The notes under the pieces: generated by a model
What the model was told of the DNA's origin: nothing
Databases searched by the model: none
The model's input: the letters and a program-made list of their open reading frames with translations, nothing else
Part shown: positions 25,828 to 64,000 of the stretch, piece after piece
How the letters are laid out: every line of letters starts with the position of its first letter
How positions within the stretch are numbered: position 1 is the stretch's first letter
Origin: an uncultured Bacilli bacterium
GTDB taxonomy: Bacteria; Bacillota_I; Bacilli_A; RF39; UBA660
Length of the DNA: 64,000 bases
Reading direction: 5' to 3'
NCBI GenBank assembly: GCA_910580135.1
Contig: CAJTXC010000001.1
Span: 2,425-66,424 of the forward strand
Position numbers and translations under genes: made by a program

Positions 25828-25834
25828 TCAAAAC

Positions 25835-28316: not shown

Positions 28317-28317
28317 C

Positions 28318-28332
28318 CTGTTGGTTCAACAG
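28318..28332 (+). other. short hairpin immediately 3' of TR
   Basis: ctgttg gtt caacag: a 6-bp perfect stem with a 3-nt loop. Confidence 0.4.
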
Positions 28333-28488
28333 AACGTTGATATAATTATTGTAGTAAACATAATCTTACCTCACCTCTTGGTGGAAAATAAAGTATGGGT
28401 TAGTAAGTATAGTAAAAGTTCACTTGAAACTGATGAAGTTAGAAAAGAACTTTCAGGTAAAGAAAGCCGGTGACCAACAGAAATTAAA

Positions 28489-29742
28489 ATGAAGATTTAT
28501 AGAAATCTTTGGGATAAAATTGTAACCTTTGAAAACTTTAAGCTTGCTTATAAAAATGCTACTAAAGGTAAAAAGCATTATAAAGAAGTTAAGATTATTG
28601 AAAGAAAAGGTGTTAACCGTTATCTTCGTAAACTACTTGAAGAAGTAAAAGGTAAAACTTATAAAGTTTCTGCTTACGATATATTTACTCGTTTTACTGG
28701 AGAAAAGTATAGAGAGATATATCGTCTGCCAATGAAAGATAGAATTGTTCAACACGCTCTTATGGTTATCATAGAGCCTATCTTTAGAGAAACTTTTATT
28801 AAAGATACTTATTCTTCAATTAAAGGTAGAGGGATACATAATGGTTTAAAAGCTATTAAAAGAATTGTTAAATCTCGCAAGTATAGATATTATCTTAAGA
28901 TTGATGTACATAAATGTTATCCGTCTCTTGATAAAGAAATATTAAAAGCTAAACTTGCTCGTAAATTTCATGATAATGATTTACTTTGGTTATTATTTAC
29001 TATTATAGATAGTTGCGATAAAGGAGTTCCTATTGGCAATTATACTTCTCAATATTTTAATAACTTTTATTTTAGTGATTTAGCACATTACTTAAAAGAA
29101 GAGTTAGGTTTAGATACTATTTGGTATTGTGATGATTTAGTTGTCTTTGGTGATGATAAAGATAAACTCCGTGAAGTTTTAAATACTATTAATAGAAAAA
29201 TGACATTACTTAATGTTCGTATCAAAGAAAACTATCAAATATATAATATAGAAATTCGTAGTGTGGATATGCTTGGTTATAAAACAAGACCTGATTATAT
29301 TCTTATTAGAAAGAATACTAAAAAGCGTTTTATAGCTAAAGTTTCCAAAATGGATTTTAATAATCTTACTAAGAAAGATATAAATACACTTGGTAGTTAT
29401 TGGGGAATATTTTGTCATGCTGATTGTAGACATCTTTGGTTTAAATATACTGGTGTGAAAACATTTAAAGAACTTAATATTAACGTTCATAAACGAGATT
29501 TTGTTAAAGATTTACTTGGAGTCAAACTTGAAATTAAAAGTTGTATGTGCTTTAGTAAACGTGGTCAAGAATGGCTAAGAATTGAATGTTGTTATAATAT
29601 AAATGGAGAACAACATGATAATGTTTATATAAGTACAAGTGCTGAAAAACTTGTTGAAGCAGGTAAACAACTTAATGCAAGTATGTTTCCTTTTGAAACT
29701 AAAATAATCGTTGATGATAAAGGTTTTTATGAATTTACTTAA
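28489..29742 (+). CDS. DGR-type reverse transcriptase
   Basis: IGNYTSQ is encoded at 29032-29052 (the [LIV]GxxxSQ hallmark of DGR RTs). YCDD is encoded at 29125-29136 (YxDD catalytic box). The N-terminus resembles DGR/group-II RTs (NLWDKIVTFENFKLAYKNATKGKK). Confidence 0.85.
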   Translation: MKIYRNLWDKIVTFENFKLAYKNATKGKKHYKEVKIIERKGVNRYLRKLLEEVKGKTYKVSAYDIFTRFTGEKYREIYRLPMKDRIVQHALMVIIEPIFRETFIKDTYSSIKGRGIHNGLKAIKRIVKSRKYRYYLKIDVHKCYPSLDKEILKAKLARKFHDNDLLWLLFTIIDSCDKGVPIGNYTSQYFNNFYFSDLAHYLKEELGLDTIWYCDDLVVFGDDKDKLREVLNTINRKMTLLNVRIKENYQIYNIEIRSVDMLGYKTRPDYILIRKNTKKRFIAKVSKMDFNNLTKKDINTLGSYWGIFCHADCRHLWFKYTGVKTFKELNINVHKRDFVKDLLGVKLEIKSCMCFSKRGQEWLRIECCYNINGEQHDNVYISTSAEKLVEAGKQLNASMFPFETKIIVDDKGFYEFT

Positions 29743-46928: not shown

Positions 46929-49900
46929 ATGGATATTCAAGCTATTTTTAATGCAGGAGGAACTGTTATTAAAAATCCTAATTATAAAAAAAGAAAAAAG
47001 AATACTCAACCAGAGTATATAACAGTTTCTGATTTAGATTCAGGAATTGCTCCTGATGGAAGTATTGTAGCAGATATAGCGTACAAAGCTGCTGCAAGTG
47101 GAAATCAAGATATATTAGGAAGAAATGGAGAATTAGATAAATATATAGAACATGGTCTTACTCCAAATGGTTGGGAAGATTTAGATGTTCAACTTGCAGA
47201 ACAACAAGGTAATTGGACTAAATTAGGTAACGCTCTTGCTCAAACTCTTGTATCTGAATTAGCTCTTGGAACAGTTAAAGGTTTCAGTGATTTAGGAGAT
47301 TTAATAGGACAAGCTGTTGGACTAAGTGACGGTGATTATTCAAATCCTGTTAGTCAATATCTTGAAGAAAAACAAGAAGAATTTCGTAATTTTGCTCCTA
47401 TATATACAAGACCTGGTGTTAACATAAGTAATGGAGGATTACTTGATGCAGGTTGGTGGACTAGTAATATACCAAGTATTATTAGTTCATTAACTCTTCT
47501 TATTCCAAGTACTGGTATTACAAAAGGTTTATCAGCTATAGGAAAAGCAGCTAATGTAGGTGCTCGTACAAGAAACGCTATACGTGCTGTTAGTGGTGTT
47601 AATCGTAAAATGGTACAAGCTGAACGTCTTAGAGAAGCAGGCAGAACTACTGAAGAAATTGCTGAACTTACTAGACTTAATGGAGTTCAAAAGTTTCTAA
47701 CAAGTGCTAGTACAGCTAAACAAACTTCTCTTTTCTTAGAAAATGCTACAACTGCTGCTCTTAGTAGAGCAATGGAGAATTATCAAGAAGCTCGTCAAAC
47801 ATATAATGATATGTACGCTGAAGCTTCAGAATATCTTAAAGATGATAATAATTATCAGACATTTCTTCAGCAAAATAGTGAATCTCTTAGGCAAGCAGGT
47901 GTTGATGTAAATGATAGAGATGCTGTAGCTAAATATATTTCTTCTTCTGCTGCCGATAGAACCTTTCAAACTGACTGGTTTAATGTTAGTTGGGATGTTA
48001 TTCAAATGTATGGTCTTAGAAATGCTTGGAAAGGACTTAGAAATGCTAAAGATACTCCTTCTGCTGTAAGACGTGCTGAATTAGATGCTCGTAAATATTT
48101 TGGTAAAAAGCCTGAAGAAATAGCTAAACTTAAAGCTCAACGTTCTTTTGGTGAAAAAGCACGAGAATGGGCTAGTGATAGACTTTATGGTTCTAAACTT
48201 ATTGTTGGTTTTGAATTAAGTGAAGGTGCTGAAGAAGCACTTAACTATATTGCTACAGAAGAAGGTATGCGATTTGGTCGTGTTCTTCTTGGAACAGAAC
48301 AAGGAGAAAATAAAGGTGTATGGAGTAACATACTTAATGGATTTGATGGTCGTTTGAAATCTTATCTTCAAGCTCCAGAACTTTATGATGCTGCTTTTTG
48401 GGGTGTTCTTGGTGGTGTAGTTTTTCAAGCTGGTGGTAGTTTTATTAATCGTGTAGGTCAAAAGTTTAATAAATCTGAAGCTGACAAAAATGCTGCAAGT
48501 AAACTCCCGTGGTATCAACTTGACCAACTTCCTGAAAATCAAAGACGTATAGCAGAAATAGAAGCTCGTTCTACTGATTTTGCTAATTACAAATCTCAAC
48601 TTGATAAAATTAATCAAGGAATTGATGTTTATAATTCTACAGAGAATAATGAAGTAAGATTTAATTCTGAAGAAGAAGCTAATGTAGCAAGAGAGAAACT
48701 TAAAGATGAATTTATTGCTAGTATGACTCTTCGTGCAATGAATTCTGGTAATTATGATATGCTTAAAGCTTTTCTTCAAGATGAAAATGTTCGTAAAAAT
48801 TTAATTGAAAGTGGTGTTTTTGGACATGAAAGTGAAAATGGTAAAACATCTGCTGAAATAGAACAAGAAGCTAAAGAATACGTTGATTCTGCTGTTAGAC
48901 GTATGGATGAAATTGCTGATATGTATGAGCAAGAACTTACAGCAGTCGATTACGCTTCTTCTCGTATTGGCAAAGATATGTTAGCCGAATATATGCAAAT
49001 TATAGCTAACAATAATGTTAATACACAACTTGCTCTTAGACAAAATCAACTTTCACTTGCAGGAACTAATGCTAGAATTGCTCAATTAGAAGAACAATTT
49101 AGAGATAATCTTGACCCTAGTATTAATCATGCAAATAATATTAAAGTAGGTCTTATTTCTTCTGAATTAGGTAAACTTTATGCTGAGAAAAAGAAACTTA
49201 CTGAACAGCCTAATAGTCTTAGCAAAACTATAGCACTCGAAAACATTAATAAAAAGATTGAAACTCTTGAAAATGAACTTTCAGATAGTGAACTTGTTTT
49301 TGCTACTTCTTTAGCTCTTCGTTATGTAAAGAAAGAAGATGGTTCTTATGCACAAGAAGATACTGAAGATTATTTTAGATACAGAGATAATCAAATAATT
49401 AATCATACAGAAGATAATGTAGGTTTAACTTTTGACGATACTTTAATAAGTGTTGGACTTTCTCGTCGTGCTAGAACTGTTCTTAGTGATGTAGCAATGC
49501 AAGAATATAAAGTTCTTGAACAAGATGCTGGTAGTAGTTTTGCTACTCTTCGTCAAATTAGTCCAGAACTTAACGATTTGTATGCTGTTCGTGCTGCTAC
49601 AGAATTATCTTCTAAAATGCTTAATTCTGAACTTGTTCGCACTGTAGATGAAGTAAGAGATTATTCTGCTATGCTTCATAATACAATGAGTGAAGCACGT
49701 ATTACTGCAATTGAACAATCCAATAAAACTATACTTGATTTATATAAGAAATATGGTAGAGATATTGAGTTCTATGTAACTGATGATTATAGCAGTAAAA
49801 ATGAAGTACTTAGAAAACTTTCTGAAAGTGAACGTAAAAATCTTGATGATGCTCTTAAAGTTTTAGCACTTACTAAATCTTATAATCGTTCTCTTGGTTT

Positions 49901-52900
49901 ACAACTTGAACTTATGTTTAGAAATCATGATGCAATAGTTGCTAGTCAAGATAGTGCTTTTATAGATGAAGAAAGTGAGGAAAACTCCACAAATTTAGAA
50001 GGCGATACAGACACTATTAACCCAGACCTTGACAATTACACAGGAACAACCGAACAAGACGACACAGAGCAAGTAATCGGGCAAAATGACGATATTACGC
50101 AGCCGAATGACCCCCAAAATATCTCAAACCGAACTCCTGCTTATTATGCTAAATTTTGGTTTCCAAAAGGTGTTCTTTCAAGTAGTAGACATAGTAGCAC
50201 AGATAACGGTGGAGCAGCAGTTTACGATAATGGAGATGGGACATTTACTTTAGATGTTCGTGATGATAAAAAAGCTCTTAACGATTCTCGTTTCTTTGCT
50301 AATGCTGATGAAGTAGATTTAACTCGTCCTTATGAAATAGTAGAAAAACCTATTCTTAAAAAGAATAAAAAAGGTAAACTTGAAGTTTATAAACAAGGTA
50401 GACTTGTTAATACTGATACATTAGAATATCAAGCTGCTCAACAAGCAGAAACTCAAGAAGAAGTTCAAGATGAAGTTCAGACTGAGGAAACTCAAGATGA
50501 AACAGTTGAACAACCTATTGAACATACTACTGAAGAAGAAGTTGAAGAAACTACTCAACCTGAGCAAGTAGAAGCTGACAACCCTTCTACGGGGGAGGTA
50601 GTTGCTGAAACTACTTCAGTTAATACAGAAAGTTCTGCTCCTGTTTCTGTTTATGATGAAGTTGTTCCAGATGAAGTTACTACAGAAGATGAAATTCGTA
50701 TGGCTAGTCTTGGAAGATTTCAAAAAGAATTTAAAGCTAATAATGATGTAGATTTAGATTCTATTGCTAGTGAAATCATAAACGAAGAAGTTAGAAAAGG
50801 TAGAGATAGACAAATGGTAGAAGCAGCTGTTAATAAATCTCTTTCTATTATTAAACGAGTAATAGAGCGTAAAAGAGGAAAAGCTGCTGATTCTGTTATG
50901 CAAAGTTCTGTTGATGAAGTTATTGTTCAATCAAGTATTGTAGAGCTTACAGCTAGAAATCCTTTTATTAAAGATTATACTGATGCTGTTAAGTCTATGA
51001 TAAATGAATTTTGTAAGGAAGTAGGTATAAATGAATATAATGGCAAAAAGTATATCAATCTTGAAGATTTACTTAGATATGTAAATACTATAACAAATGA
51101 TAGTCAAACTTCTAATATGATGTTTGACGCACTTAAAGTTTATCTTACTACAGACGAAGCTAAAAAAGAGTTTATAACAACTGATGAAACTCAGAATAGT
51201 GATACTCTTAAAAAGAATATAGCTAAGTCTGCTGCTCAACGTTATCAAGAAAGACTTTCTGATACTACTACACAACGAGTAGATATTTGGAGTCTTCGTA
51301 GAACTATGTCTTCTAATAAAGAACTTCAAGAATTTGAAGAAGCACTTGAGGCTATACAAAAAGGAGATAAACTTACTTATGTAAAAGAAGATAAAAGAAT
51401 TGTTCTTAAAGATTCTAAAGGTAGAATTGTCGGTACTTTAGCTATTCCAAGTATCAATCCTAAAACTGGTGCTTATGAAATAGCTAATGATGGTTGGAGA
51501 TATGATATTATTTCTCAAACTGGTGGTAATATAAATAGTAATCTTAAAACCCTATTTTCTCGTTGGCTTAATGAAGTGAATGATGCAAGTAAAGAACTTA
51601 ATGCTATTATTTACGAATTAGCATTTGAAAATGTAAGTCCTGAAAGAAAGAAAGAACTTCTTGTTAAATTTGCTAATAATTCTGAAATTAAATCTGCCAG
51701 AAATAATGGTTTTATAGATGCTGCTGCAACTAATGAAAAACTTATTAATGGTCTTGTTAAACTTTGGAGATACCAAAATTATACAGATGGAGATGTTACT
51801 ACTTTACGTAATAAACGTATTGATAGAACATTGAATACTTGGTTTAGCAAACTTCGTAATAGTTATGATGGAGTTAGTTATCTATTAAATGAAGAAAATG
51901 GAGAAATAGAAGTAACTAATATTAGTGATGGCGAGATAATTAGAGCTTCAGAAACTAATGGACAAGAAGCTGCTCTTCCTGTTAATAAGGCAATAGCTGG
52001 TGGTGTAAATCCTTCTATTCATAAATTAGCTATAGCCTCTAATAACGCTAATCATCTTACTGTTTCAGGTATGCCTGATATTCATTTTTCTGGTGTAGGT
52101 AAAATGAATACTTTTGTTCTTTTACCTAATAGAAACGGAAGTTATGAATATGTTCAAGCATATCCTGCTGATATTACTGATGATTATATAGGAAAAGATG
52201 CCAAAGAAATAATTAAAGCAATTCAAGATAGAGTAGAACAACTAATTGAAACTCATGTTAAACAACCTACTCAAGAAAGTTTCGAAGCTATTAAATCTTT
52301 TGTTAAATCTGTTCTTAGTAATCATAATGGTAATAGTAGTCTATTTTGGAATCTTACTCTTTTTGAACAAGGTAATACTTTTGGTATTTCTTTGAATAAA
52401 GATACTAAGATTGTTATAAATGCTACAACAGGGCAAGTAGATATTTCTAAATCAGAATATAAACCTAATAAAAAAGGATTTAGACAAATAAGGGTTGATT
52501 TAAATAGTAAACAAGCTAAAGATGCAATATCTGAACTATTAAATAATCTTAGATTTAATCTCAATCCTACTTATATAGCTTCAGATAATGCTACAAATAC
52601 TATTTTAAATGGTATAGTTAAACGTAGAAATGGTAAATTTGAAATAACTATTGGAGATAGGACTTGGTCATACGATAGTTTCAATGATTTTATACTTTCT
52701 AATAATCTTGTTAGACTTAATACCAAACCAAATGAAAGAGGAACAAGTAATTTTACTCCTCGTGGTAGTCGTAGTCAAAGTGGTAATCAAGTATTAGAAA
52801 TTAGAATTAATAGTACAACCACCTCCCCCGTAGAAAACCTCATAGAAACTCAATCTACTGAACCTGTTATTCCAGATACTAAAAACATTTCTATTCCTGA

Positions 52901-53894
52901 AAGAGCTATTGCTATTCTTAACGGAACACAACAAAGTAGTCATAAAGGTAATGATATTGCTGCTTTAATATTTAATGAAAAACAGTTAAAAGCGTTCAAA
53001 GAGTTGCAATTATTACCGGAAAATATTATATTTGACGAAAATTTCAATAATAAAGAAGGATATGAAACAATTAATGCTGAATATAATGTTAAGACAAGAC
53101 AAATAACTGTAGGTAAACGTTGGCTTGATATGTTTAATAATCCTACTACTCGTAATCAAGCTATTCGTAAACTTATTCATGAGCAACTTCACTATAAGAT
53201 TGGACGAAACAAAGGATATGTTAGAAGTGTTCAAAGTATATATGATGAATTTAAGGAATATCTTGATAAAAATAATGTTCCTAAAGATGCACATATTAGA
53301 GCTTATCTTTTTGAAGGAAAGAAAACTCAACTTGAAACACTTGAAGAATTTCTTGTTGAATCTCTTACAAGTCAAGAACTTGCTCAGTATCTCAATAATA
53401 TAGAAACTACTGTTCCAATTAAATATGGTGCTAAGAACCTATGGCAAAAAATAATGAAAGTTCTTAGTGATATATTTGGTTGGGGAATAAATAAAGGTAG
53501 TCTTTATGAGAAAGAACTTAATACTATTCGTAATTTAAAACTTGAAGATTCCGCTGCTGAAACTTCTACAGAAACAACTGAAACTGAACAAGAACAACCT
53601 GCTACAACAGAAGAAGTTGAAACTAAAGAAGAAAAAGTAGAAGAAAAGATAGAAGTAACAGACGAAGAAGATAGTTCTACAAATGATGACGATTTTGTAG
53701 ATATAAGTGATGATTTAATAGATGAATTTGATAGTAGTGTTACAGAAGAACCTATTGTTAATAGAGATGGTAGTACAAATCTAATGTCAAATGTTCCGTC
53801 TATTCAGTCTATTACTGAAACATTACCGTTAGACCAACAGCCCGAATTTGCCTCTCTCGTGGCTTCTGCTGAGATTGAAACCTCTTGCCGATGA
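46929..53894 (+). CDS. giant virion protein (2321 aa) with C-terminal zincin HExxH motif and acidic low-complexity tracts
   Basis: HEQLH is encoded at 53178-53192 (IRKLIHEQLHYKIG). There are E/Q/T/D-rich tracts around aa 1170-1230 and at the C-terminus, and hydrophobic Gly-rich segments near the N-terminus. Confidence 0.6.
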   Translation: MDIQAIFNAGGTVIKNPNYKKRKKNTQPEYITVSDLDSGIAPDGSIVADIAYKAAASGNQDILGRNGELDKYIEHGLTPNGWEDLDVQLAEQQGNWTKLGNALAQTLVSELALGTVKGFSDLGDLIGQAVGLSDGDYSNPVSQYLEEKQEEFRNFAPIYTRPGVNISNGGLLDAGWWTSNIPSIISSLTLLIPSTGITKGLSAIGKAANVGARTRNAIRAVSGVNRKMVQAERLREAGRTTEEIAELTRLNGVQKFLTSASTAKQTSLFLENATTAALSRAMENYQEARQTYNDMYAEASEYLKDDNNYQTFLQQNSESLRQAGVDVNDRDAVAKYISSSAADRTFQTDWFNVSWDVIQMYGLRNAWKGLRNAKDTPSAVRRAELDARKYFGKKPEEIAKLKAQRSFGEKAREWASDRLYGSKLIVGFELSEGAEEALNYIATEEGMRFGRVLLGTEQGENKGVWSNILNGFDGRLKSYLQAPELYDAAFWGVLGGVVFQAGGSFINRVGQKFNKSEADKNAASKLPWYQLDQLPENQRRIAEIEARSTDFANYKSQLDKINQGIDVYNSTENNEVRFNSEEEANVAREKLKDEFIASMTLRAMNSGNYDMLKAFLQDENVRKNLIESGVFGHESENGKTSAEIEQEAKEYVDSAVRRMDEIADMYEQELTAVDYASSRIGKDMLAEYMQIIANNNVNTQLALRQNQLSLAGTNARIAQLEEQFRDNLDPSINHANNIKVGLISSELGKLYAEKKKLTEQPNSLSKTIALENINKKIETLENELSDSELVFATSLALRYVKKEDGSYAQEDTEDYFRYRDNQIINHTEDNVGLTFDDTLISVGLSRRARTVLSDVAMQEYKVLEQDAGSSFATLRQISPELNDLYAVRAATELSSKMLNSELVRTVDEVRDYSAMLHNTMSEARITAIEQSNKTILDLYKKYGRDIEFYVTDDYSSKNEVLRKLSESERKNLDDALKVLALTKSYNRSLGLQLELMFRNHDAIVASQDSAFIDEESEENSTNLEGDTDTINPDLDNYTGTTEQDDTEQVIGQNDDITQPNDPQNISNRTPAYYAKFWFPKGVLSSSRHSSTDNGGAAVYDNGDGTFTLDVRDDKKALNDSRFFANADEVDLTRPYEIVEKPILKKNKKGKLEVYKQGRLVNTDTLEYQAAQQAETQEEVQDEVQTEETQDETVEQPIEHTTEEEVEETTQPEQVEADNPSTGEVVAETTSVNTESSAPVSVYDEVVPDEVTTEDEIRMASLGRFQKEFKANNDVDLDSIASEIINEEVRKGRDRQMVEAAVNKSLSIIKRVIERKRGKAADSVMQSSVDEVIVQSSIVELTARNPFIKDYTDAVKSMINEFCKEVGINEYNGKKYINLEDLLRYVNTITNDSQTSNMMFDALKVYLTTDEAKKEFITTDETQNSDTLKKNIAKSAAQRYQERLSDTTTQRVDIWSLRRTMSSNKELQEFEEALEAIQKGDKLTYVKEDKRIVLKDSKGRIVGTLAIPSINPKTGAYEIANDGWRYDIISQTGGNINSNLKTLFSRWLNEVNDASKELNAIIYELAFENVSPERKKELLVKFANNSEIKSARNNGFIDAAATNEKLINGLVKLWRYQNYTDGDVTTLRNKRIDRTLNTWFSKLRNSYDGVSYLLNEENGEIEVTNISDGEIIRASETNGQEAALPVNKAIAGGVNPSIHKLAIASNNANHLTVSGMPDIHFSGVGKMNTFVLLPNRNGSYEYVQAYPADITDDYIGKDAKEIIKAIQDRVEQLIETHVKQPTQESFEAIKSFVKSVLSNHNGNSSLFWNLTLFEQGNTFGISLNKDTKIVINATTGQVDISKSEYKPNKKGFRQIRVDLNSKQAKDAISELLNNLRFNLNPTYIASDNATNTILNGIVKRRNGKFEITIGDRTWSYDSFNDFILSNNLVRLNTKPNERGTSNFTPRGSRSQSGNQVLEIRINSTTTSPVENLIETQSTEPVIPDTKNISIPERAIAILNGTQQSSHKGNDIAALIFNEKQLKAFKELQLLPENIIFDENFNNKEGYETINAEYNVKTRQITVGKRWLDMFNNPTTRNQAIRKLIHEQLHYKIGRNKGYVRSVQSIYDEFKEYLDKNNVPKDAHIRAYLFEGKKTQLETLEEFLVESLTSQELAQYLNNIETTVPIKYGAKNLWQKIMKVLSDIFGWGINKGSLYEKELNTIRNLKLEDSAAETSTETTETEQEQPATTEEVETKEEKVEEKIEVTDEEDSSTNDDDFVDISDDLIDEFDSSVTEEPIVNRDGSTNLMSNVPSIQSITETLPLDQQPEFASLVASAEIETSCR
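50586..50597 (+). repeat. iterated motif, exact TCTACGGGGGAG
   Basis: Context caaccCTTCTACGGGGGAGGTAGTTgct, inside ORF 46929-53894, read as NPSTGEVV. Confidence 0.9.
52823..52834 (-). repeat. iterated motif, exact (CTCCCCCGTAGA)
   Basis: Context CAACCACCTCCCCCGTAGAAAA, same ORF, read as TTTSPVEN. The 22-nt context is identical to the copy at 42881. Confidence 0.9.
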
Positions 53895-53960: not shown

Positions 53961-56900
53961 ATGAGTTGTAATCTTTTTATAGATAGCACAGAAGTTAATA
54001 ATGCTATTGTAGCAGCAAGTAAAGGAAATAGTATTCTTGCTACAAGATATACTCTTGAATTTAAGAGTGAAGCGTTTGCTAAAGAACTTAAAGATAAATT
54101 AGGATTAAGTATTGATGAAATTCCTAAAAATAAACTTAATGAAGTAGTCAAACTTCTGCAAGAATATCATAATAGACTCTATCCTGATATTAATTATAGT
54201 ACCAAGCTTAATACGAGTGATTCTCCAATCACTCGTTTCGGGTATGATAGTGTTGCTACTCGTGAATTTGGTAAGAAACTTGCAGCTAATTTTATGTTAA
54301 GTGCTTATCATCAACTTGTTCATGATAAAGGTAAAACAATACAACAAGCTCTTAAAGAAATTAAAGAGAAAACAAAGAAAGATATATCTCCAAGAGATTA
54401 TTTTGCTAATACTGTAGTAGCTAAAGTTAAAAAACTTATTATTGAAAGAATTGTAAGTAGAAAATTAACTACTAAAGAAGAAGTTTTGCAATTAATGAAA
54501 ACAAATAATACTGCAAAACTTGAAGAACTATTTGCAAAAGATAATCGTATTGAAGATGCCAATCTTCTTGCTATGTATAAAGAAATACTTGGCAATAGAC
54601 GAGCTTTCTTTGAAGAAGTATTTCGTAATAACGCTCTTGGAGAACTTAGACTTAAGAAACAGCCTATAGCAGAAGATACTTCTTATGAAGCAATAGATGA
54701 ACAAGTAGAAGAAGAACTAGATTCTGAAGAAGGAAATGATTCTCCTACTGATGATAAAAACAATTCTATTAAAGAATTGAATGAAAAACTTGGTGACTAT
54801 AATAACTTTATGACTCATGTTGGAATGAGTATCAGAGGTTATTTTTCAAGTCTTCCTAGAATTATAAATGGTGAAAAATCTAACGGTAAATATGTTCAGG
54901 ATACCAATAATCCTTTTGGCATAGCAGATACAATGTCTGCTGCTCAATGTATTGCTGTTCTTTATTCTTATGGTAACTTCACTAATACAAAAACTATGAT
55001 AGATAGTATTCGTGAAATTGCTGATAATGTTCCGGGAATGGCAGCGTTTCATCAAGTTGCAGATTATCTTGACACTAATATTAGTTTTGCATTTGAAGTA
55101 TATAGAACTTTTGGTAAAGCTATTGTTAGCAAAATAGAAACTACAGATGCTAGTGGAGAATTTGGTAGTAGAACAAGTAATAGAACTGCTGATAAACTTA
55201 CTACACTTAAATTTGAATTTTTTAATAGTGCTAAGTCTACAAGTATTCGTTCTGAAGTAGAACATAGTAGTGATATATTTACTTCTATAAGTAAAAGACT
55301 TAAAGATTTACGTCAATTTAAAAAAGATATTGACTCAGATAGTTCTGTAAGTCCTGAAGATATAGAGGATTTCAATGAAGAAGTAAAGAAAGTTGCTACA
55401 GATTTATATAATCTTCTTAAACGATATTATCCTACTCTTTCAGATAAAGCTATAATAAATTATGTTAATTCTGGAAATCAAGTAGATAATCTTGCTAACT
55501 TAAGTAATATAGCTCAGCTTACAATAAAAGGAGCAGAGAAGAGTAAATTTACTTATGACAGCCGTCAAGCTGACCTTAATGCTCTTTATAGTAAAAGATA
55601 CCAACTTACACAAGCTCTTGAAAATGGCGAAAAGATAAGAAATGGTGCTTTTGAAGAAATTGAAAATCAACTTAATCAGCTTTATTCTATTGATTATGTT
55701 AGCAAAGAAACTCAAGAAGCTGCTTATCAATTAGCTGATGCCCTTGTTAAATTTAGTCTAATTAAGACTGAACTTAATTCTCGTAACGTACATGGTAATC
55801 AATCATCTGATGTTATTAACAACAGTATGATTACTAATATTATAAATACTCTTAAAGACCAAACAGCATTAGAGAATTTTGGTAAATATAAAGGACAATC
55901 CAAACAATATGATTTCAGTAATATTATGATTGAGCATCGTGATGAAAATGGAAATCTTATTAATTATGGATTGTTTACTCAGAATCCAGATAGTAAAGAA
56001 CTTACTCCTACTCCTTATGCTTACAGACTTCTTCAAAATACTTTATTTAGTGGTGCTGGTAGTGTAGTAGATGGTAAAAATGTTCTTTATTCTGAAATGA
56101 GTAGAGGTGACTATACTACTACAGCTTTCATTAATTTCTTTAGAACTGAAGATGATTTTAGTCAACAAACTGAAGCTGATAAAATAGCTTTTGCAGAATA
56201 CTTTATGCGTATTCCATCTGATGCTCCTAAGAATTTTATTATTAAAGCTCCTAAATATTCTGTTAATGGATTGTTTACAAAAGACGGTGTTAATACAAAT
56301 CATCCTATTTTCCAACAGTTTAGACAAGTATTTATACAAGAGCTTCAAGATATGGCTACAGCTATAAATGTTCTATTTGAACATGAAAGTGGTAAAGTTC
56401 GTCTTGATACAGATGAAAAATCACCTACTTATGGTATGCCTATATTTAAGCCTGGATTTGCTAATGATGCAGAAACTGCTCGTAAACTTTATAATAACTA
56501 TCATACTAAGAAAGGTAAAATTCTTAAAAAACTTTCTACAGGTCAATATAGTCTTTTAGGAGATGTATTTACTTCTGATAGGTTTAAAGTTACTATTCTT
56601 AATGAAAATGGTAAACTTGAAGCTGTTAATTTTGCTGATGAGATATTAAAACATTTCAATCTTCTTTACGGGGGAGCTAATAATACTTATCTCCATACAA
56701 CTACCACAAGCAATGGCGTGACTGTTCAACTTACCGATGAACAAAGTGCTATTATAAATGAACAACTTTCTAAGTTTATTATAGCTTACTCAAGTAGAGC
56801 TGTAAATGAGCTTAATGTTTATAGGAATTTTATTCCTGAAGGACTTCTTACAAAACGTAATGCGGCTGAATTTGCTCTTAATCATAGACTTATGTATATT

Positions 56901-59900
56901 AACTTCAATGATTTATTTGAGGGAGATACTAAGTTTTATAAAGATACACAAACTTTTCTTAAACGTGCTAAAGAAGCACAAGGTTCTGGTGTTCCTTATG
57001 GTATTGTAAATTATCAAATGGATTTATCCGAAGAACCTACTCTTGTTGAAAGTCCTCTTAATAATATAACATTTAATCACATATCTGTTGATGGAGTTAC
57101 TTCTCAAGTTAAAATAAATCAATATAGTAAATTTAGAGGAGTAACTATTAAAAATACTATTAGAACTGGTGATACAATTGGTACATTTGTAACTGATAAT
57201 AATGGTAATCCAGTTAAAGACGAAAATGGTAATTATAAGTTTGAAAAGCCTGGAGTTTTAGCTAAGACTCTTATAGATGCTCTTGTTGCATCTGGCATGA
57301 GTAAACCAAATGCTAAAATTCATGCTGCTAATATGATGGTGGGTTATACTAACACTACTGTCAATGATGCACAATCTTATATTACTTTTGAAGAATGGGT
57401 TCGTCGTATAACTGCTCGTGGTCAACTTCCTCAATATAAAGAACTTATAGATGCTGTACTTGATGAAACTAAGCCCTTAGATGCTAAAACTATTGGTCAG
57501 TTTATTCAAGTACAAAAGAACTTTTATTATGACCAACATTATAATGCTGAACTTGGAGTTATAGCTCCTCGTCAGATTAAAAATGCTGAATTTGTTATCG
57601 TTCCTCGTCTTGTTCGTGGTACACAACTTGAACAAGTTTATAACTTAATGCGAGAATTTAATATCGACCAGCTTAATACAGAAGAAACTTCTAAAGCAGG
57701 TAAATGTAATGTTCTTATATTATGGGATAATGAAGGAAATTTGACTGACGCTAATATAGCAGATTTTAGAGCTAATGCTGTTCATGCTACAGAATATTAT
57801 AATTATAATTATCTTTATACTCAACAAGAAACTCCTCAACATCTTGCAGCTGAGAACAAAGCTGGTATTCAGATAATGAAGAAAATTATAGATAACATTG
57901 ATTCTAATAGTGAACTTTATCCTCTTAAACAAAAGTTCTTTAATTTATATTCTCAAAATATTGTAGATAGTTATGAGAATTTAATGCAAGAACTTCATAT
58001 TAAACAAGATGAAAATGGAGAAATAAGTGCTTTTGACCAAGCTATTCTTTATGATATGCTTAAAGAAGAAGTTGGTCGTCTTGGTCTTGATAGTAATATG
58101 ATGGATTATGTTACTCTTGACAGGGATGGTGTTCCTATGATGCCAACTTATATGAGTAATGTTTCTACTAAACTTGAAAGTATTGCTCAAAGTTTGTTTA
58201 ATAATCGTATTACTCGTCAGAAACTTCCTGGTTGGCATGCTGCTCAGATTACAAATGTTGGTTGGACTGCTCTTAACGATACAGTTGATAAACGTAGTTA
58301 TAGTAAAAAACTTCAATATCATCCTGATGGTAAGCCTTATGTTGAAATAATGCTTCCTAAGAGCAATTTCCAAAATCTTGAATATAATAAACCAGATGGT
58401 ACTACTAAAACAGATGAAGAACTATTAGCAGAACTTGCTGAATCTGGACTTGATACAATGATTGGTTATCGTATTCCAACTGAAGGTAAACAATCTGTTT
58501 GTATTATGAAAGTTGTTGGGTTTACAGATGATGCTCTTGGTTCCACTATTGTAGTTCCTGATGATTGGGTTTCTCAAACTGGTTCTGACTTTGATATTGA
58601 CTCTGTTTATGGTATTCATTTTAGTGGAGAAGTAAATAAAGAAACTGGTAAATTAGAAAAAGTTCAATATAATAAAGAAGATAAACGTTCAGATAGAAAA
58701 ACAAAAGGACGTAATAATGAACTTCTTCAAACTATGATTGATATTCTTTCACATCCAAGTTCTTTAGAGGAAAATCTTTCTCGTTCTAACTTTGAAGATA
58801 TTATCAACGATAGAGATGAAGTTATAAATTCTGAACTTGCTAAACTTAGAAAAGCTCGTTCTCCTTATGATTTCTTCGACCAAGCTGCATATCAAGAAGA
58901 TGTAATGAGTGGTGCTAAACTTAAAGCATTTAGTGTTACTCGTGATACTTTTTGTTCTATATGTAATACAGTTCGTCCGAACATTAGTGTAGGTAAAACT
59001 GTTTCTGTTATTTATAAGAAAGATGACGGTTATACTGAAGCTGGTCTTAAGAAACATTTTGGAAATATAAAAAGACTTAAAGATGGTAGTGGTTGGATTG
59101 TAACACATGATACTTTAGGTTGGACTTTAGATAATAAAAATGTTGTTGGAAAGATTCTAACAGCTTATTCATCTCAAACTACAGCTCATATTCTCGATGC
59201 TGTAAAAGAAGGTTCTATCCCTAATGTTAATGATTTTACTTTCCAAGTATATAAGTTATTTCCTGATATAGGTTCTGATTATAAAACTGCTATTGCATTT
59301 ATGATGCAACCTGGTGTTACTAGAATAGTAAATATTTATAATGCTAATAAATCTATATATGGAGAAGAATCTGGTAATGCTATAAATGAAGCTATTAAAC
59401 AAATAGCTACAGAAATACTTAAGCTTGATGGAATTTCTATTCCTAAAAATGCTAGTGTAAAAACACTACTTAATAAACTTAAAAATATTTCTTCAGAAAT
59501 AGCAGAATTATTTGATGTAGTTGAAGCTGATAAATTTAAAATAGAAGATACAGCAGCAGCTAATATGCTTAATATTTCTGCTTCTAAACTTAGAGATAGA
59601 ATTAATCAAACTGGTGAGTTTAGCACTACCTCCCCCGTAGGAAGTAGAAATCAATTACTTTATGATTTAGGTGTTATTCTACAATATAATAAACTTAATA
59701 TTTTAGCTAATGATATTTCTGCTTATGCAAGAGTTTGTAATCCTGATAAGTTTGGTGCTAAGCAAACTATTTATGCTACTGCTAAAGTATTTGATGATAT
59801 TCAAACTCTTGTAACCGCATCTAACCCTTCTCTTACTGTAAATGGTAGAAGTTTTATTGCTGCTATTTATCCTGAAGTATTTAGAGGTATAGATGGTTAT

Positions 59901-62900
59901 ATGAAAGAAACTTCTATCGCAGAATCTGCTTATCCTCCTCTTAATGCTTTTTTACGATATGCTACTGCTCCTTCTATTAAAATAAATAGGGGTTTGTTTG
60001 CTACACAGTCTGATGAATTTAGGCGTGAAGTGGAAAAACTAGCTACTCTTTTTAGTAATGGTAGAACTCTTTCTGAAAAAGAATATAAAGATTTTCAGAA
60101 TTATATTCTTAATTATATTTATAGTCAAGCAAAAGCTATAAGTAACGCTGTTACTTATAAAGATGGAAATTTTGTTTATACTCAGACTGATACTCTTGAA
60201 GAATGTAGTCGTATTTATGGATATGGTAAAACTCCTAATCTTGAAGTAACAGATAAACATGGAGAAATTGTTGAGTTTAAAGTAGAAGATATAAATGATC
60301 CTACTGAATTAGAAATTCAACAGTTTGCTAGTCTTAGTCCTGCTCAAAAAATTCATTATATTCAACAAACTTTTGAAAATAGTGGTGTATTTAAATATAT
60401 AAATGTATCCCTTTATAATAGAGGTTCAAATGCAGGAAAACAGACTATTCAATATGTAGAAAATAATGAAGATATTGAAACTGTTTATAATGAATTTGAA
60501 AAATGTTTCTTTAATGATAATCCTTTAGTAGCACTTGCTGCTATGGATATTGTTAAATACGGTTTTGTTGTTGAAGGTTTTAAAATGAGAAAGAATGCTG
60601 TTAATAAAGTAATTAAAAATAGTGTTCTATTATCTGACAAAACAGGTATAATATCTGATATTTCAACAGCAATTGCTACAATTAAAGATAATGCTATTAG
60701 TACAAATCAACTTAGAAGAAATTATATTCGTAGCCATTCTAATAGTACTTTTATTTCTGGTAAAAGAGTTTATAAAAAGAAAGATGAACATGGTAATTGG
60801 AGATTTGAACTTACTCCTAGAGCTGATGGTATAATTCTTATAGACAATGCTGGTTTAGCTTCTAAATATGGAGTTATATATGACCCAGAACCTAACAATA
60901 GGAATTATCATCCTTATGAAACTAATAGTTATGTTAAGTTATCTTTTAATGGTGTATCAAATCTTTATAGGATTGTAAGTGTAAATGATACTTATATTCT
61001 ATATCCTGTAAACAAACTTGAAGAGAATGAAAATTCTGATTTCTCTGTAAATCCTTTAAATAATAAATTTTTAAGTGAAGAATATTACTTAGGAATTATT
61101 AATGATTTTCGTGACCAACTTAGAGAAAGAGATAGAATTGTAGAAGAACAATTACAAAGTGCTCAAGAAGCTGCTAAATTAGAAAGTAGAGATTTAACTA
61201 AAGAGGAGTATAATGAAATTACAGAAAATGCTCCTACTGTAGATTTTTCTGCTGTTTTAGAAAAACATAAACTTGAAAGGGATAAATATAAACCTAAGAC
61301 AGTTAAACGAGCAAGTGGTTTCTCTAAATCTTTTGATATTAATTCAAAAGATACAGTTAATACTGGAGGTTTTGAAGATGTTATATCTAAAGTAACAGAA
61401 AGATTTAGTGAAAATCCTTTTAGCACTCTTTATCTTCGTAGCACAGCTTTAAGTAATTATATAACTTCTACAGGTATTCATGGTAGTAGTATTCAAACTA
61501 TTAATGGAAGACGTTATGTAATTCAAAAAGTTAATCTTTCTCGTTTAAATAAAAAATATATAGGAGAAGAAAATAAAGATGTAGTTGTAAAAGAATCTAA
61601 TGCAGATATTCAAGAAATAATGCAAAAAGCTAAAGATGCTGGATATACTGTACATGATGTATTTATGATTACTCCTTATGAAGAAAATGTAGAAGTTATG
61701 CAATCTTCAGTTACTGAAGATATAAATGAACTTCCTAATTCTACAACATTAGGAGTTCAAGCTATGGCTACTATGTTTTCTCGTAGAAAATCTGAAGGTG
61801 ATATTGAAGCAGCTAAAGCTCTTAAGTTTCTTCAAGATAAACAAATAACTGGTTCTGCTCCATCTGTAAGCGAAAATACTAAAGATGTAATTCAAACTAC
61901 TGCTGAATATATAGATTGCATGGTTAGTAACTTGTTTACTGACATGAAATATTTCATTAAAGATGATAATTTACAACCATTTGCTATAAATAGTCCTGAA
62001 GCTATTGTTGCAATTAAAGCAGACCCTGCTATTAGACAGAGATTTTTGAAAACTCTTCTTGATGCTCGTGCTCTTGTTAAAAACTTTGCTATCATAAATG
62101 AACTTGATATTCAAGCTGAAGATGATAGTCTTAAACCTTTCTTGAATAAAATTAAAGAAAATATAAATAGACTTCAAAATGCTACAATTATTGCAGAAAC
62201 TGAAAGACTTTTTGCAAATGAGTTTCTTGCTAAACTTAGTAAAAATCCTTTAATTCAACAAGATATTATTAGTGTTCTTGATGGTTATCATAGTGCTTCT
62301 TCTTTTGATGCTTGGGTTGGAGATTTACAAGAAAGTTCTTCTCCTCTTATTCAAATTGTATCTAAAGAAGTAATGGCTGATATTCGTTCTAAAGAAATGA
62401 TGGCTATTAAACGAGTACAAGAATTTAGAAAGAAACTTGCTGATATTAAACGTAGAGCTAAAGAAGCAGGAGTAGATATTGATTGGAAAAAGATTATAGA
62501 TGAAAATGGTAGATTTATTCAAAATTATAATCAAACTTTCCTTGATAAACTTGCTGAACTTAGAGAAAATATATCTGTAGCTAAATCTGAATACGGTGTT
62601 GGAAGTATAGAACATCTTAAAGCCAAACTTGCTTATGATAAATGGAAATTAGCTAATATAAATCAACCTGTTGTAGATGAATATTATCGTCAAAAGATTG
62701 ATATAGAAGAACGTATGATTAATCAGTATGGTACTATTTATTCTGCTTATAAAAAACTTGCTGATAAACGTAGAGAACTTCTTAGTCATACAAGTAATGG
62801 AGTATTAGCTGATAATTATAAACAAGAACTTGAGGAAGTTAAGCGTGATATAAACAATCTTATTAATGATTGTGTTTATGACCAAGCTACAGGAACTTTC

Positions 62901-63999
62901 TTAGAAAAGTATCAAGTTGATGACCCAAATAATCCTTTTAGAGGAGAAGATAGAATTCTTTATAGTATAGATAATGCTTATGCTCTACAAGGGTATCTTA
63001 AGCAAATGAAAGAACTTAATGATAAGTATTTTGATGTAGATACTAAATTTGGTTTTCAAGAAGAATTAGATAGAAACCTTGACATAATTAATAATTATGA
63101 AATGAGGGATGCTAATGGGCATATAACTACTCCTATGGTAGAACTTATGAAACATGAAGATTATGTTAGAGCTAAAGAATGGTTAGCAAATAATGCTCGT
63201 TATGTAGCTACAGAAGAAGTAATGGATGTTGTTAATTCTGCTTTTAAGATATTTAGAGAGAATAAACAAGGTCGTAAACTTCTTTCTATGATTGCTAAAA
63301 AACAAGATGCTTATGACGAAAGAGGCATAATTGATGGACGTAAACTTACTGAAGAAAATATTCGTCAGTTATATGAAGAGCAACTTATAAATTATGGTAT
63401 TCGTGAAAATCAAGTATTTAGCGATAGAACTCTAATTAGTAATTCTCCTACTGATGATACTATATTTACAGCAGCATTTTATAAAGGAATGACTTCTGAT
63501 GGTGCTAAAAATAGTGAATATATTGCTAAAATAAATGAAATCAATAGAATACTTAAACCTCATTTTACTACACATGATGGAACTCTTCATACTGCTGAAC
63601 TTTCTGAAGATGAAATAAGAACTCTTCGTAGACTTTATGAAGAACTTGATGAAATTAAGAAATATGTTAAAGGCAGTGCTACTAATGGAAGTAGTGTTCG
63701 TAAATTTATAGATGAACACGTTGAATTTGTTTATGATGAAGAGAAATTCCAACAGCAAGAAGATTTAGCTAAACAAAGAGGAGAAAGATATTATCGTATG
63801 TGGCTTTCTCTTAATACTCAAATAGTAGAAGATGAAGATGGCAACGATATATCTGTTCCTAATAGATATATCTATGGTTATGCTGTTCCTAAAGGATACA
63901 AGAAAGATGGAACTGGTGATAACACTTTCGTAGATAGTAGAAAAACTGGTGCTCTTCATACTATTCGTAGCTATACTCGTAGTAGAAAAACCCAATATT
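53961..63999 (+). CDS. giant virion-associated RNA polymerase-like protein, 5' partial relative to window end (>3340 codons)
   Basis: ATG 53961 follows an in-frame TAA, and the ORF is absent from the track because no stop occurs before the window edge. The frame was hand-checked at 56661, 58581, 59622 and 63840-63999. GYRIPTEGKQS followed by TGSDFDIDSVYG (DFDID encoded at 58587-58601, aa 1543-1547) mirrors the RxPTxxxxS ... NADFDGD double-psi beta-barrel of multisubunit-type RNAPs. Confidence 0.7.
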   Translation, partial: MSCNLFIDSTEVNNAIVAASKGNSILATRYTLEFKSEAFAKELKDKLGLSIDEIPKNKLNEVVKLLQEYHNRLYPDINYSTKLNTSDSPITRFGYDSVATREFGKKLAANFMLSAYHQLVHDKGKTIQQALKEIKEKTKKDISPRDYFANTVVAKVKKLIIERIVSRKLTTKEEVLQLMKTNNTAKLEELFAKDNRIEDANLLAMYKEILGNRRAFFEEVFRNNALGELRLKKQPIAEDTSYEAIDEQVEEELDSEEGNDSPTDDKNNSIKELNEKLGDYNNFMTHVGMSIRGYFSSLPRIINGEKSNGKYVQDTNNPFGIADTMSAAQCIAVLYSYGNFTNTKTMIDSIREIADNVPGMAAFHQVADYLDTNISFAFEVYRTFGKAIVSKIETTDASGEFGSRTSNRTADKLTTLKFEFFNSAKSTSIRSEVEHSSDIFTSISKRLKDLRQFKKDIDSDSSVSPEDIEDFNEEVKKVATDLYNLLKRYYPTLSDKAIINYVNSGNQVDNLANLSNIAQLTIKGAEKSKFTYDSRQADLNALYSKRYQLTQALENGEKIRNGAFEEIENQLNQLYSIDYVSKETQEAAYQLADALVKFSLIKTELNSRNVHGNQSSDVINNSMITNIINTLKDQTALENFGKYKGQSKQYDFSNIMIEHRDENGNLINYGLFTQNPDSKELTPTPYAYRLLQNTLFSGAGSVVDGKNVLYSEMSRGDYTTTAFINFFRTEDDFSQQTEADKIAFAEYFMRIPSDAPKNFIIKAPKYSVNGLFTKDGVNTNHPIFQQFRQVFIQELQDMATAINVLFEHESGKVRLDTDEKSPTYGMPIFKPGFANDAETARKLYNNYHTKKGKILKKLSTGQYSLLGDVFTSDRFKVTILNENGKLEAVNFADEILKHFNLLYGGANNTYLHTTTTSNGVTVQLTDEQSAIINEQLSKFIIAYSSRAVNELNVYRNFIPEGLLTKRNAAEFALNHRLMYINFNDLFEGDTKFYKDTQTFLKRAKEAQGSGVPYGIVNYQMDLSEEPTLVESPLNNITFNHISVDGVTSQVKINQYSKFRGVTIKNTIRTGDTIGTFVTDNNGNPVKDENGNYKFEKPGVLAKTLIDALVASGMSKPNAKIHAANMMVGYTNTTVNDAQSYITFEEWVRRITARGQLPQYKELIDAVLDETKPLDAKTIGQFIQVQKNFYYDQHYNAELGVIAPRQIKNAEFVIVPRLVRGTQLEQVYNLMREFNIDQLNTEETSKAGKCNVLILWDNEGNLTDANIADFRANAVHATEYYNYNYLYTQQETPQHLAAENKAGIQIMKKIIDNIDSNSELYPLKQKFFNLYSQNIVDSYENLMQELHIKQDENGEISAFDQAILYDMLKEEVGRLGLDSNMMDYVTLDRDGVPMMPTYMSNVSTKLESIAQSLFNNRITRQKLPGWHAAQITNVGWTALNDTVDKRSYSKKLQYHPDGKPYVEIMLPKSNFQNLEYNKPDGTTKTDEELLAELAESGLDTMIGYRIPTEGKQSVCIMKVVGFTDDALGSTIVVPDDWVSQTGSDFDIDSVYGIHFSGEVNKETGKLEKVQYNKEDKRSDRKTKGRNNELLQTMIDILSHPSSLEENLSRSNFEDIINDRDEVINSELAKLRKARSPYDFFDQAAYQEDVMSGAKLKAFSVTRDTFCSICNTVRPNISVGKTVSVIYKKDDGYTEAGLKKHFGNIKRLKDGSGWIVTHDTLGWTLDNKNVVGKILTAYSSQTTAHILDAVKEGSIPNVNDFTFQVYKLFPDIGSDYKTAIAFMMQPGVTRIVNIYNANKSIYGEESGNAINEAIKQIATEILKLDGISIPKNASVKTLLNKLKNISSEIAELFDVVEADKFKIEDTAAANMLNISASKLRDRINQTGEFSTTSPVGSRNQLLYDLGVILQYNKLNILANDISAYARVCNPDKFGAKQTIYATAKVFDDIQTLVTASNPSLTVNGRSFIAAIYPEVFRGIDGYMKETSIAESAYPPLNAFLRYATAPSIKINRGLFATQSDEFRREVEKLATLFSNGRTLSEKEYKDFQNYILNYIYSQAKAISNAVTYKDGNFVYTQTDTLEECSRIYGYGKTPNLEVTDKHGEIVEFKVEDINDPTELEIQQFASLSPAQKIHYIQQTFENSGVFKYINVSLYNRGSNAGKQTIQYVENNEDIETVYNEFEKCFFNDNPLVALAAMDIVKYGFVVEGFKMRKNAVNKVIKNSVLLSDKTGIISDISTAIATIKDNAISTNQLRRNYIRSHSNSTFISGKRVYKKKDEHGNWRFELTPRADGIILIDNAGLASKYGVIYDPEPNNRNYHPYETNSYVKLSFNGVSNLYRIVSVNDTYILYPVNKLEENENSDFSVNPLNNKFLSEEYYLGIINDFRDQLRERDRIVEEQLQSAQEAAKLESRDLTKEEYNEITENAPTVDFSAVLEKHKLERDKYKPKTVKRASGFSKSFDINSKDTVNTGGFEDVISKVTERFSENPFSTLYLRSTALSNYITSTGIHGSSIQTINGRRYVIQKVNLSRLNKKYIGEENKDVVVKESNADIQEIMQKAKDAGYTVHDVFMITPYEENVEVMQSSVTEDINELPNSTTLGVQAMATMFSRRKSEGDIEAAKALKFLQDKQITGSAPSVSENTKDVIQTTAEYIDCMVSNLFTDMKYFIKDDNLQPFAINSPEAIVAIKADPAIRQRFLKTLLDARALVKNFAIINELDIQAEDDSLKPFLNKIKENINRLQNATIIAETERLFANEFLAKLSKNPLIQQDIISVLDGYHSASSFDAWVGDLQESSSPLIQIVSKEVMADIRSKEMMAIKRVQEFRKKLADIKRRAKEAGVDIDWKKIIDENGRFIQNYNQTFLDKLAELRENISVAKSEYGVGSIEHLKAKLAYDKWKLANINQPVVDEYYRQKIDIEERMINQYGTIYSAYKKLADKRRELLSHTSNGVLADNYKQELEEVKRDINNLINDCVYDQATGTFLEKYQVDDPNNPFRGEDRILYSIDNAYALQGYLKQMKELNDKYFDVDTKFGFQEELDRNLDIINNYEMRDANGHITTPMVELMKHEDYVRAKEWLANNARYVATEEVMDVVNSAFKIFRENKQGRKLLSMIAKKQDAYDERGIIDGRKLTEENIRQLYEEQLINYGIRENQVFSDRTLISNSPTDDTIFTAAFYKGMTSDGAKNSEYIAKINEINRILKPHFTTHDGTLHTAELSEDEIRTLRRLYEELDEIKKYVKGSATNGSSVRKFIDEHVEFVYDEEKFQQQEDLAKQRGERYYRMWLSLNTQIVEDEDGNDISVPNRYIYGYAVPKGYKKDGTGDNTFVDSRKTGALHTIRSYTRSRKTQY
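56665..56676 (+). repeat. iterated motif, variant TTTACGGGGGAG (1 change)
   Basis: Context cttcTTTACGGGGGAGCTAATAA, inside the RNAP-like ORF, read as LLYGGAN. Confidence 0.75.
59630..59641 (-). repeat. iterated motif, variant CTCCCCCGTAGG (1 change)
   Basis: Context CACTACCTCCCCCGTAGGAAG, inside the RNAP-like ORF, read as STTSPVGS. Confidence 0.75.
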
Positions 64000-64000
64000 A

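Follow-up and report, generated by a model that had tools for sequence, protein, structure and literature searches.

A giant gene at the edge of a crAss-like phage contig very probably encodes a virion RNA polymerase fused to the next conserved virion protein

A 64,000-nucleotide stretch of contig CAJTXC010000001.1 (positions 2,425 to 66,424; hereafter the window) ends inside an open reading frame (ORF) that begins at ATG 53961 on the plus strand and meets no stop codon before the sequence runs out. An earlier note, made from the letters alone, had recognised in this ORF a signature of the double-psi beta-barrel (DPBB) of RNA polymerases (RNAPs). The locus raises the question of whether this is one real gene and, if so, what it encodes. 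We conclude that the giant ORF is very probably a crAss-like phage's virion RNA polymerase, fused in-frame to the next conserved virion protein as in gp44 of crAssphage.

A single open reading frame of 4265 codons

The frame opened by ATG 53961, which is preceded by an in-frame TAA at 53943, holds 3346 codons without a stop up to the last complete codon of the window (ending at 63998), whereas the five remaining frames counted over the same 10-kb stretch contain 85-684 stops each. Calculated from the AT-rich base composition, the chance of finding no stop over 3346 codons is ~1e-131, and the G+C content at codon positions 1, 2 and 3 (47%, 33% and 10%, respectively) reveals real coding periodicity. 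The uninterrupted giant ORF noticed earlier was thus confirmed, and its absence from the list of ORFs had a sole cause, namely that it runs off the end of the window.

The full-length gene was read from two public contigs (L004 and L005) of P0001, a 4265-aa entry in the protein database with 5 residue differences to the window fragment. These contigs differ from the window at 10-12 nucleotides over 20 kb, and in both the stop sought by extending the sequence was found at codon 4265, ~2.76 kb past the window end, with no frameshift. The corresponding cluster at 90% identity comprises 31 proteins, drawn from NCBI, ENA and Logan assemblies and encoded on contigs of up to ~95 kb; all 15 full-length members listed are 4265-4266 aa long, and two of these show just 2 residue differences to the window fragment. 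An exact 50-mer search of viral contigs for an extension of the window gave no match, and an exact database look-up of the 2321-aa protein encoded upstream returned no record.

Stop-codon recoding and fragmented RNAP genes do occur in some crAss-like lineages (review PMC10136315), which lends some ground to the idea that an assembly, sequencing or recoding artefact has merged several genes into this ORF, the outcome that the earlier note had named as a refutation. However, the standard bacterial code gives 0 stops in the giant frame, the two contigs are independent, come from different samples and both carry this gene of 4265 codons, and more than 110 homologs of 4200-4900 aa can be aligned from end to end. 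The common end at codon 4265, together with the constant length of the cluster members, excludes a hidden frameshift, and we give an artefact next to no credence.

Homology to the virion RNA polymerases of crAss-like phages

When aa 1101-2300 were used as a tblastn query, 110 phage records were retrieved, nearly all of them crAss-like, including crAssphage KP06_gp44, crAss002 and phi14:2; a query of aa 1301-1800 additionally reached gp50 of crAss001. KP06_gp44 (4070 aa) is labelled 'putative RNAP catalytic subunit fused to unknown RNAP subunit'. We built a family profile and alignment (A1) from 18 family members, and this profile gave exactly one match among PDB sequences, 6VR4, which is gp66 of phi14:2 (E 1.9e-26). 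Searched with hmmsearch, the profile matched gp66 (E 9e-31, profile 851-1835) and then gp67 (E 1.6e-16, profile 2993-4355), and in crAss001 it matched gp50 (E 6e-35) and then gp49 (E 6.4e-25), collinear in both phages. Profile-to-profile comparison by hhalign yielded probabilities of 99.5% for gp66, over 631 columns, and 98.7% for gp67. We are confident that aa 1 to ~2400 correspond to phi14:2 gp66 and crAss001 gp50, and equally so that aa ~2500-4265 correspond to phi14:2 gp67 and crAss001 gp49.

The features of the giant gene are as follows (all on the plus strand):

53961..64000: giant ORF, open and cut by the window edge; full gene 4265 codons; ortholog of crAssphage gp44, collinear with phi14:2 gp66 and then gp67
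53961..56840: N-terminal region (aa 1 to ~960), moderately conserved; M1 and C3 invariant in the family
57315..57830: putative first (beta-like) DPBB region (aa ~1119-1290), aligned to gp66 944-1095, just before the gp66 Connector
57816..58235: Connector-equivalent (aa ~1286-1425), with boundaries inferred from the alignment to gp66 1095-1238
58443..58640: second (beta-prime-like) DPBB (aa ~1495-1560), aligned to gp66 1318-1370
58464..58496: GYRIPTEGKQS (aa 1502-1512); Y1503-S1512 invariant and G1502 nearly invariant in the 18-sequence alignment
58587..58601: DFDID (aa 1543-1547), predicted Mg2+-binding catalytic aspartate triad; D1543, F1544, D1545 and D1547 invariant
58866..58970: probable bridge-helix equivalent (aa ~1636-1670)
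61161..61460: linker (aa 2401-2500), variable and rich in gaps, between the gp66-like and gp67-like modules
61461..64000: start of the gp67/gp49-like C-terminal module, matched by the profile to gp67 and gp49; the remainder lies past the window

The peptide that had been quoted at aa ~1500-1550 is present, with GYRIPTEG beginning at aa 1502 (nt 58464) and DFDID occupying aa 1543-1547 (nt 58587-58601). DFDID aligns column for column with gp66 1361-DFDID-1365 in both hmmsearch and hhalign, as does GYRIPTEGKQS with GYRIPNQGQSS of gp66; between and around them, IGYRIPTEGKQS...TGSDFDIDSVY is aligned with gp66 IGYRIPNQGQSS...TGSDFDIDKMY. The spacing from GYR(I/V)P to GSDFDxD is 39 residues, start to start, among the five annotated reference proteins compared, and GSDFDxD is found in 117/120 listed homologs. 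In phi14:2, gp66 is a Mg2+-dependent, DNA-dependent RNAP in which each aspartate of DFDID is essential for RNA synthesis (bioRxiv 10.1101/2020.03.07.982082). The proposal that this segment is the beta-prime-like DPBB catalytic region of a crAss-like virion RNAP was borne out by the alignment of these two blocks with gp66.

Domain layout and predicted fold

Conservation within the family peaks at aa 1201-1300 and aa 1501-1600. Within the N-terminal region, only the last part is detectably similar to the N-terminal regions of gp66 and gp50 (gp66 592-895 matches profile 851-1123, and crAss001 gp50 665-762 matches profile 707-807). The segment at aa ~1120-1290, which we take, by homology only, to be the beta-like barrel, contains the invariant blocks NDAQSYIT, QKNFYYD and PRQIKNAEFV and the invariant lysines K1186 and K1207, which align with lysines of gp66; beta strands are present there in the model described below. 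It is followed by the equivalent of the Connector defined for gp66 (bioRxiv 10.1101/2020.03.07.982082). Further downstream, the sequence alignment to gp66 extends to gp66 1534-1535, where the bridge helix of that protein (1529-1559) begins, and aa ~1636-1670 are the probable equivalent of this helix: the model shows long helices at 1638-1671, and Q1641, S1650, G1651, L1654, K1655, S1658, V1659, D1662, S1666 and N1669 are invariant.

An AlphaFold2 model of aa 1001-2200 (predicted local distance difference test, pLDDT, 74.9; predicted TM-score, pTM, 0.62) places strands at 1499-1504, 1512-1522, 1528-1532 and 1549-1552 in the second DPBB. When this model was searched with Foldseek, 6VR4 came first (E 5.6e-23) and Neurospora QDE-1 second (E 1.9e-3, probability 0.90), followed by RNAP subunits of Pol II, AR9, African swine fever virus (ASFV) and E. 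coli and by RDR2; beta-prime, Rpb1, RPA1 and rpo147 chains and designed DPBB proteins were also among the fold matches. The model strands and fold matches show a feature of the two-barrel superfamily, a beta-prime-like DPBB with a metal-binding aspartate triad. A lack of structural similarity to two-barrel polymerases had been put forward as a further refutation, and it fails on the matches to 6VR4, QDE-1 and RNAP large subunits.

The polymerase module varies among close relatives (P0003, aa 2212-2235; P0098, P0101, P0102 and P0104), some of which carry inserts of ~150-400 aa in it; in a few, the Pfam family PF12694 (cpYpsA, the circularly permuted YpsA SLOG family) partially matches the insert. 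No such insert is present in the window protein.

Weighing the assignment

Several observations count against the polymerase assignment. Scans with Pfam, including its beta-prime/Rpb1 domain models (RNA_pol_Rpb1), and with PHROGs do not recognise the giant ORF, nor does a single-sequence phmmer search of the PDB, and so the assignment rests on comparing profiles and folds with a single solved relative. The protein shares little identity with gp66, 14-15% in structural alignments and 23% by hhalign, and the catalytic loop is modelled with low confidence (model residues 538-544, pLDDT <50). A fold search with part of the gp67-like module (aa 2401-3346) gave nothing significant, the weak matches being to alpha-solenoid proteins, nucleoporins among them. 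Moreover, the packaging, ejection, activity and processing that we propose for the protein of this phage are transferred from other phages.

One alternative is that the polymerase fold has been kept in a catalytically dead protein, whose sole role would be inside the capsid or in ejection. Consistent with this, the gp66 crystal shows the DFDID loop in a shape that does not permit catalysis, and Ile occupies the fourth position of DFDID, compared to the Gly of all previously studied RNAPs. Yet the three aspartates, GYRIPTEGKQS and dozens of nearby residues are invariant down to 30% overall identity, GSDFDxD is kept by nearly all listed homologs, and gp66, with an identical DFDID and essential aspartates, is active in vitro, which makes a dead enzyme very unlikely. 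A different identity altogether is implied by some GenBank labels, which give 'nuclear pore complex-like protein' for the orthologs in cr271_1 and cr8_1 and 'DNA helicase' for some of the more distant matches; the helical C-terminal model does have weak matches to nuclear-pore and other alpha-solenoid proteins. These fold matches have E >0.2, a probability <=0.08 and a TM-score of ~0.07-0.1, the Pfam scan found no helicase or nucleoporin domains, and the conserved core is, by profile and fold, demonstrably a gp66-type polymerase. We find it hardly conceivable that either label is correct, and we rejected the nuclear-pore reading on the ground that only generic, non-significant helical-repeat fold matches speak for it.

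As for the database records themselves, the orthologs in MT774394/NC_055887 (cr271_1), MT774384/NC_055877 (cr8_1) and MH552500 (ctcc615) bear either the label 'nuclear pore complex-like protein' or the label 'hypothetical protein'. The former label probably stems from weak helical-repeat similarity, and the labels of all three orthologs should read virion RNA polymerase fusion.

Phage context and the upstream partner gene

By its gene content, the window is assigned to a crAss-like phage (Crassvirales). The large terminase subunit (TerL), the portal and the major capsid protein match crAss-type PHROGs (E 1e-113 to 1e-138), all genes of the window lie on the plus strand, and the closest deposited genomes, Wotdevirus murinus ctcc615 and Hacihdavirus animalis cr271_1, belong to the Obtuvirinae of the Intestiviridae. 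The gene directly upstream of the giant ORF is the following:

46929..53894, plus strand: partner gene, 2321 aa, ortholog of crAssphage gp45 by tblastn and phmmer matches

Its product has no match in Pfam and PHROGs scans. The label of crAssphage gp45 is 'RNAP-associated protein fused to zincin protease', and the upstream ORF has a single HExxH motif, HEQLH at aa 2084 (nt 53178-53192), near the C-terminus. The local sequence context of HEQLH is the same in cr271_1, and the position near the C-terminus is similar in crAssphage gp45 and crAss001 gp47. A plain HExxH pattern search found none in the phi14:2 counterpart (GenBank tag gp078), which is termed a zincin-like protease in the literature (bioRxiv 10.1101/2020.03.07.982082). 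The locus accordingly has the neighbourhood known from Crassvirales, with a zincin-motif protein encoded upstream and a gp67-like module fused downstream.

When the four genes lying upstream of the protease-like ORF were compared pairwise by phmmer with cargo proteins of crAss001 and phi14:2, no match was found, and an equivalence between them would rest on size and order. A search for tRNAs in the window and in the 193 bases that follow the giant gene in L005 found none. Elsewhere in the window, at 25814-29742, lies a classic, textbook diversity-generating retroelement. Its 135-nt variable repeat (27900-28034) lies at the 3' end of a tail-protein gene, and its template repeat (28182-28316) lies upstream of the reverse transcriptase (28489-29742; phrog_1423, E 1e-92); 35/35 mismatches between the two repeats fall on template adenines.

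Comparison with known systems

Giant RNAP genes, of up to ~6000 aa, are, for crAss-like phages, a hallmark according to a review (PMC10136315). The earlier note had placed the giant ORF at the extreme end in length, with more than 1500 residues before the catalytic loop; this did not survive comparison with its relatives. Among the 117 motif-bearing proteins of the 120 listed homologs, the median length is 4519 aa (maximum 4919) and the loop lies at 1504-1869 (median 1708); in the prototypes it lies at 1361 (phi14:2 gp66), 1433 (crAssphage gp44, itself fused) and 1483 (crAss001 gp50). With 4265 aa and the loop at 1543, the window protein stands near the short end of its own family. The giant ORF is a typical example of a hallmark gene that is already known and introduces no new principle.

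The closest deposited named genomes, cr271_1 (4620 aa) and ctcc615 (4253 aa), encode proteins with 55-62% identity over the full length, in the same gene order as the window and with the TACGGGGGAG motif described below at homologous positions; the cr271_1 ortholog has ~350 extra residues. More distant is crAssphage (Carjivirus communis), of the subfamily Crudevirinae, compared to the Obtuvirinae of the window's closest relatives. Its gp44 shares the fused architecture, the end-to-end alignment to the family profile, the GSDFDxD and GYRIP blocks at the 39-residue offset and the upstream gp45 with its zincin-type HExxH; it differs in being ~200 aa shorter, in having DFDVD where DFDID is found here and in a core identity of ~36-39%. 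In crAss001, gp50 matches the polymerase module and gp49 the C-terminal module, and gp47 has an HExxH near the C-terminus like the upstream ORF, but the genes are split and gp47 lies on the opposite strand from gp49 and gp50. The two modules are also separate in phi14:2, as gp66 (PDB 6VR4; 2180 aa) and gp67 (1421 aa), compared to one 4265-aa ORF here; this phage, with 14-23% identity and a marine host, belongs to a different family, the Steigviridae.

Beyond the phages, QDE-1 and the eukaryotic RDR-type RNA-dependent RNA polymerases have no detectable sequence similarity to the giant ORF and 7-11% identity in structural alignments; these much smaller, cellular enzymes function in RNA silencing. 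A functional analogue is the virion RNAP (vRNAP) of phage N4 (gp50, ~3500 aa), a giant polymerase that is carried in the capsid, is ejected and transcribes early genes. Its operon also encodes further ejection proteins, and an HExxH motif occurs (PMC13434306). The N4 enzyme has an unrelated, T7-like single-subunit fold; our profile search of the PDB gave only 6VR4, and no N4 vRNAP chain was among the listed fold matches.

The linker and the fate of the fused chain

Along the whole protein, aa 2401-2500 have the lowest conservation (0.29) and the highest gap fraction (0.27), and the alignment to crAssphage gp44 breaks there. A second model, of aa 2401-3346, has a pLDDT of ~30 at aa 2401-2455 and is helical afterwards. 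This region is a candidate flexible tether or cleavage region. The C-terminal module that follows has strongly conserved blocks past the window end. Near its C-terminus, P0001 has a single hydrophobic, transmembrane-like segment (~4111-4132) followed by an acidic DDD(D/K)E run, together spanning aa 4111-4135; by hydropathy scan and hhalign, this combination occurs in 5/5 examined members of the family and pairs with the equivalent stretch of phi14:2 gp67. The hydrophobic segment hints at membrane insertion of the C-terminal module.

We infer that the disordered and variable linker around aa 2400-2460 either is where the two modules become separated or at least tethers them flexibly, and we put actual cleavage of the chain there at even odds. 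The 4265-residue chain could instead stay uncleaved and work as one multi-module machine for ejection and transcription, with the polymerase tethered to a gp67-like module that anchors in the host membrane, much like the arrangement of N-terminal domain, RNAP and C-terminal domain in N4 vRNAP. In line with this, the fusion has a constant length among full-length proteins of the 90% cluster and is also kept by crAssphage gp44 and by more than 110 homologs, the hydrophobic segment and acidic run are conserved in common with gp67, and possible parallels between crassvirus RNAP-associated proteins and the N4 vRNAP domains have been raised (PMC13434306). On the other hand, the modules are separate genes in phi14:2 and crAss001, so that they need not be covalently joined; the junction, which is predicted to be disordered, has the lowest conservation and the most gaps of the whole protein, as expected of a cleavable or dispensable linker; and the authors of the gp66 study, who note fusions of such RNAPs into huge polyproteins, deem their cleavage likely (bioRxiv 10.1101/2020.03.07.982082). 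We hold an uncleaved chain to be a tentative but real possibility. A bolder version, which we regard as improbable, is that the intact fusion, with its C-terminal segment in the host inner membrane, would form an anchored ejectosome-polymerase that helps to pull the genome in by transcription, while the targets of the HExxH protein would be the host envelope or a cleft-blocking element and not the module junction. If true, crassviruses would have an equivalent of the mechanisms by which N4 and T7 enter.

A repeated motif of the phage lineage

A 16-17 bp element with the consensus ~yTTC-TACGGGGGAG-(G/C)T occurs in both orientations in the window, which has 13 TTCTACGGGGGAG sites. Its exact 10-mer core, TACGGGGGAG, has 13 copies there, compared to 0.39 expected:

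Core copies in the window: 1089, 4185, 10168, 17456, 21603, 33542, 34500, 42369, 42881, 50588, 52823, 56667 and 59630; a copy with 1 mismatch at 17648
56667..56676, plus strand: copy in the giant gene, at conserved LYGGAN codons
59630..59639, minus strand: copy in the giant gene, at conserved SPV codons

The two copies that the earlier note had attributed to the giant ORF are indeed both present, but they are 2 of the 13 in the window and do not characterise this gene in particular. The majority of copies are intragenic, where they read S-T-G-E-V/L on one strand and S/T-S-P-V-E on the other. The core is also found in cr271_1 and ctcc615: both have it at the LYGGAN codons and right after the stop of the giant gene, and ctcc615 has it at the SPV codons as well. 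None of the loci fetched for crAssphage, crAss001 and phi14:2 contains it. L004 and L005 carry a one-mismatch copy after the giant gene stop, and in IMG/VR multiple copies per contig occur mainly in contigs of 85-94 kb. A literature search for the 10-mer returned only unrelated primer sequences. The 16-mer motif is lineage-wide and not specific to the giant gene.

The copy that follows the stop in L004 and L005 (22799-22992, ~2.8 kb past the window end) overlaps a hairpin, GTAGAAAGGTT-N11-AACCTTTCTAC, which is followed by a T-rich tail; judged by sequence, this arrangement after the giant gene appears terminator-like. The end of these contigs resembles the start of a tRNA, and cr271_1 has a tRNA-Gln at the equivalent place; ARAGORN finds none in the partial piece.

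Proposed working of the polymerase and its significance

The way in which this polymerase may work can be sketched by transferring the mechanism of phi14:2 and crAss001 onto the homology, catalytic motif, fold and synteny of the giant ORF. The protein would be made late and stored in the cargo zone of the capsid together with the upstream HExxH protein; gp47, gp49 and gp50 of crAss001 are capsid cargo in virions (PMC10172136). At infection, it would be ejected, partly unfolded, through the tail into a Bacteroidota host, where it would refold and transcribe the early genes independently of the host polymerase, with the DFDID loop of the second barrel binding the catalytic Mg2+. Middle and late genes would then be read by the host RNAP. 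For gp66, delivery to the cell with the DNA and transcription of the early genes have been described (bioRxiv 10.1101/2020.03.07.982082).

Taken together, the main value of these results lies in a correct annotation, which places the hallmark virion RNAP on a gene that is blank in Pfam and PHROGs and confirms the crAss-like phage identity of the window. With its disordered linker and conserved hydrophobic segment, the fused form could suit the study of RNAP polyprotein cleavage and of the role of the gp67-like module. The biology of crassvirus RNAPs is important in a wider sense, both for early transcription by these abundant viruses of the human gut and for the proposed link to the polymerases of eukaryotic RNA interference.

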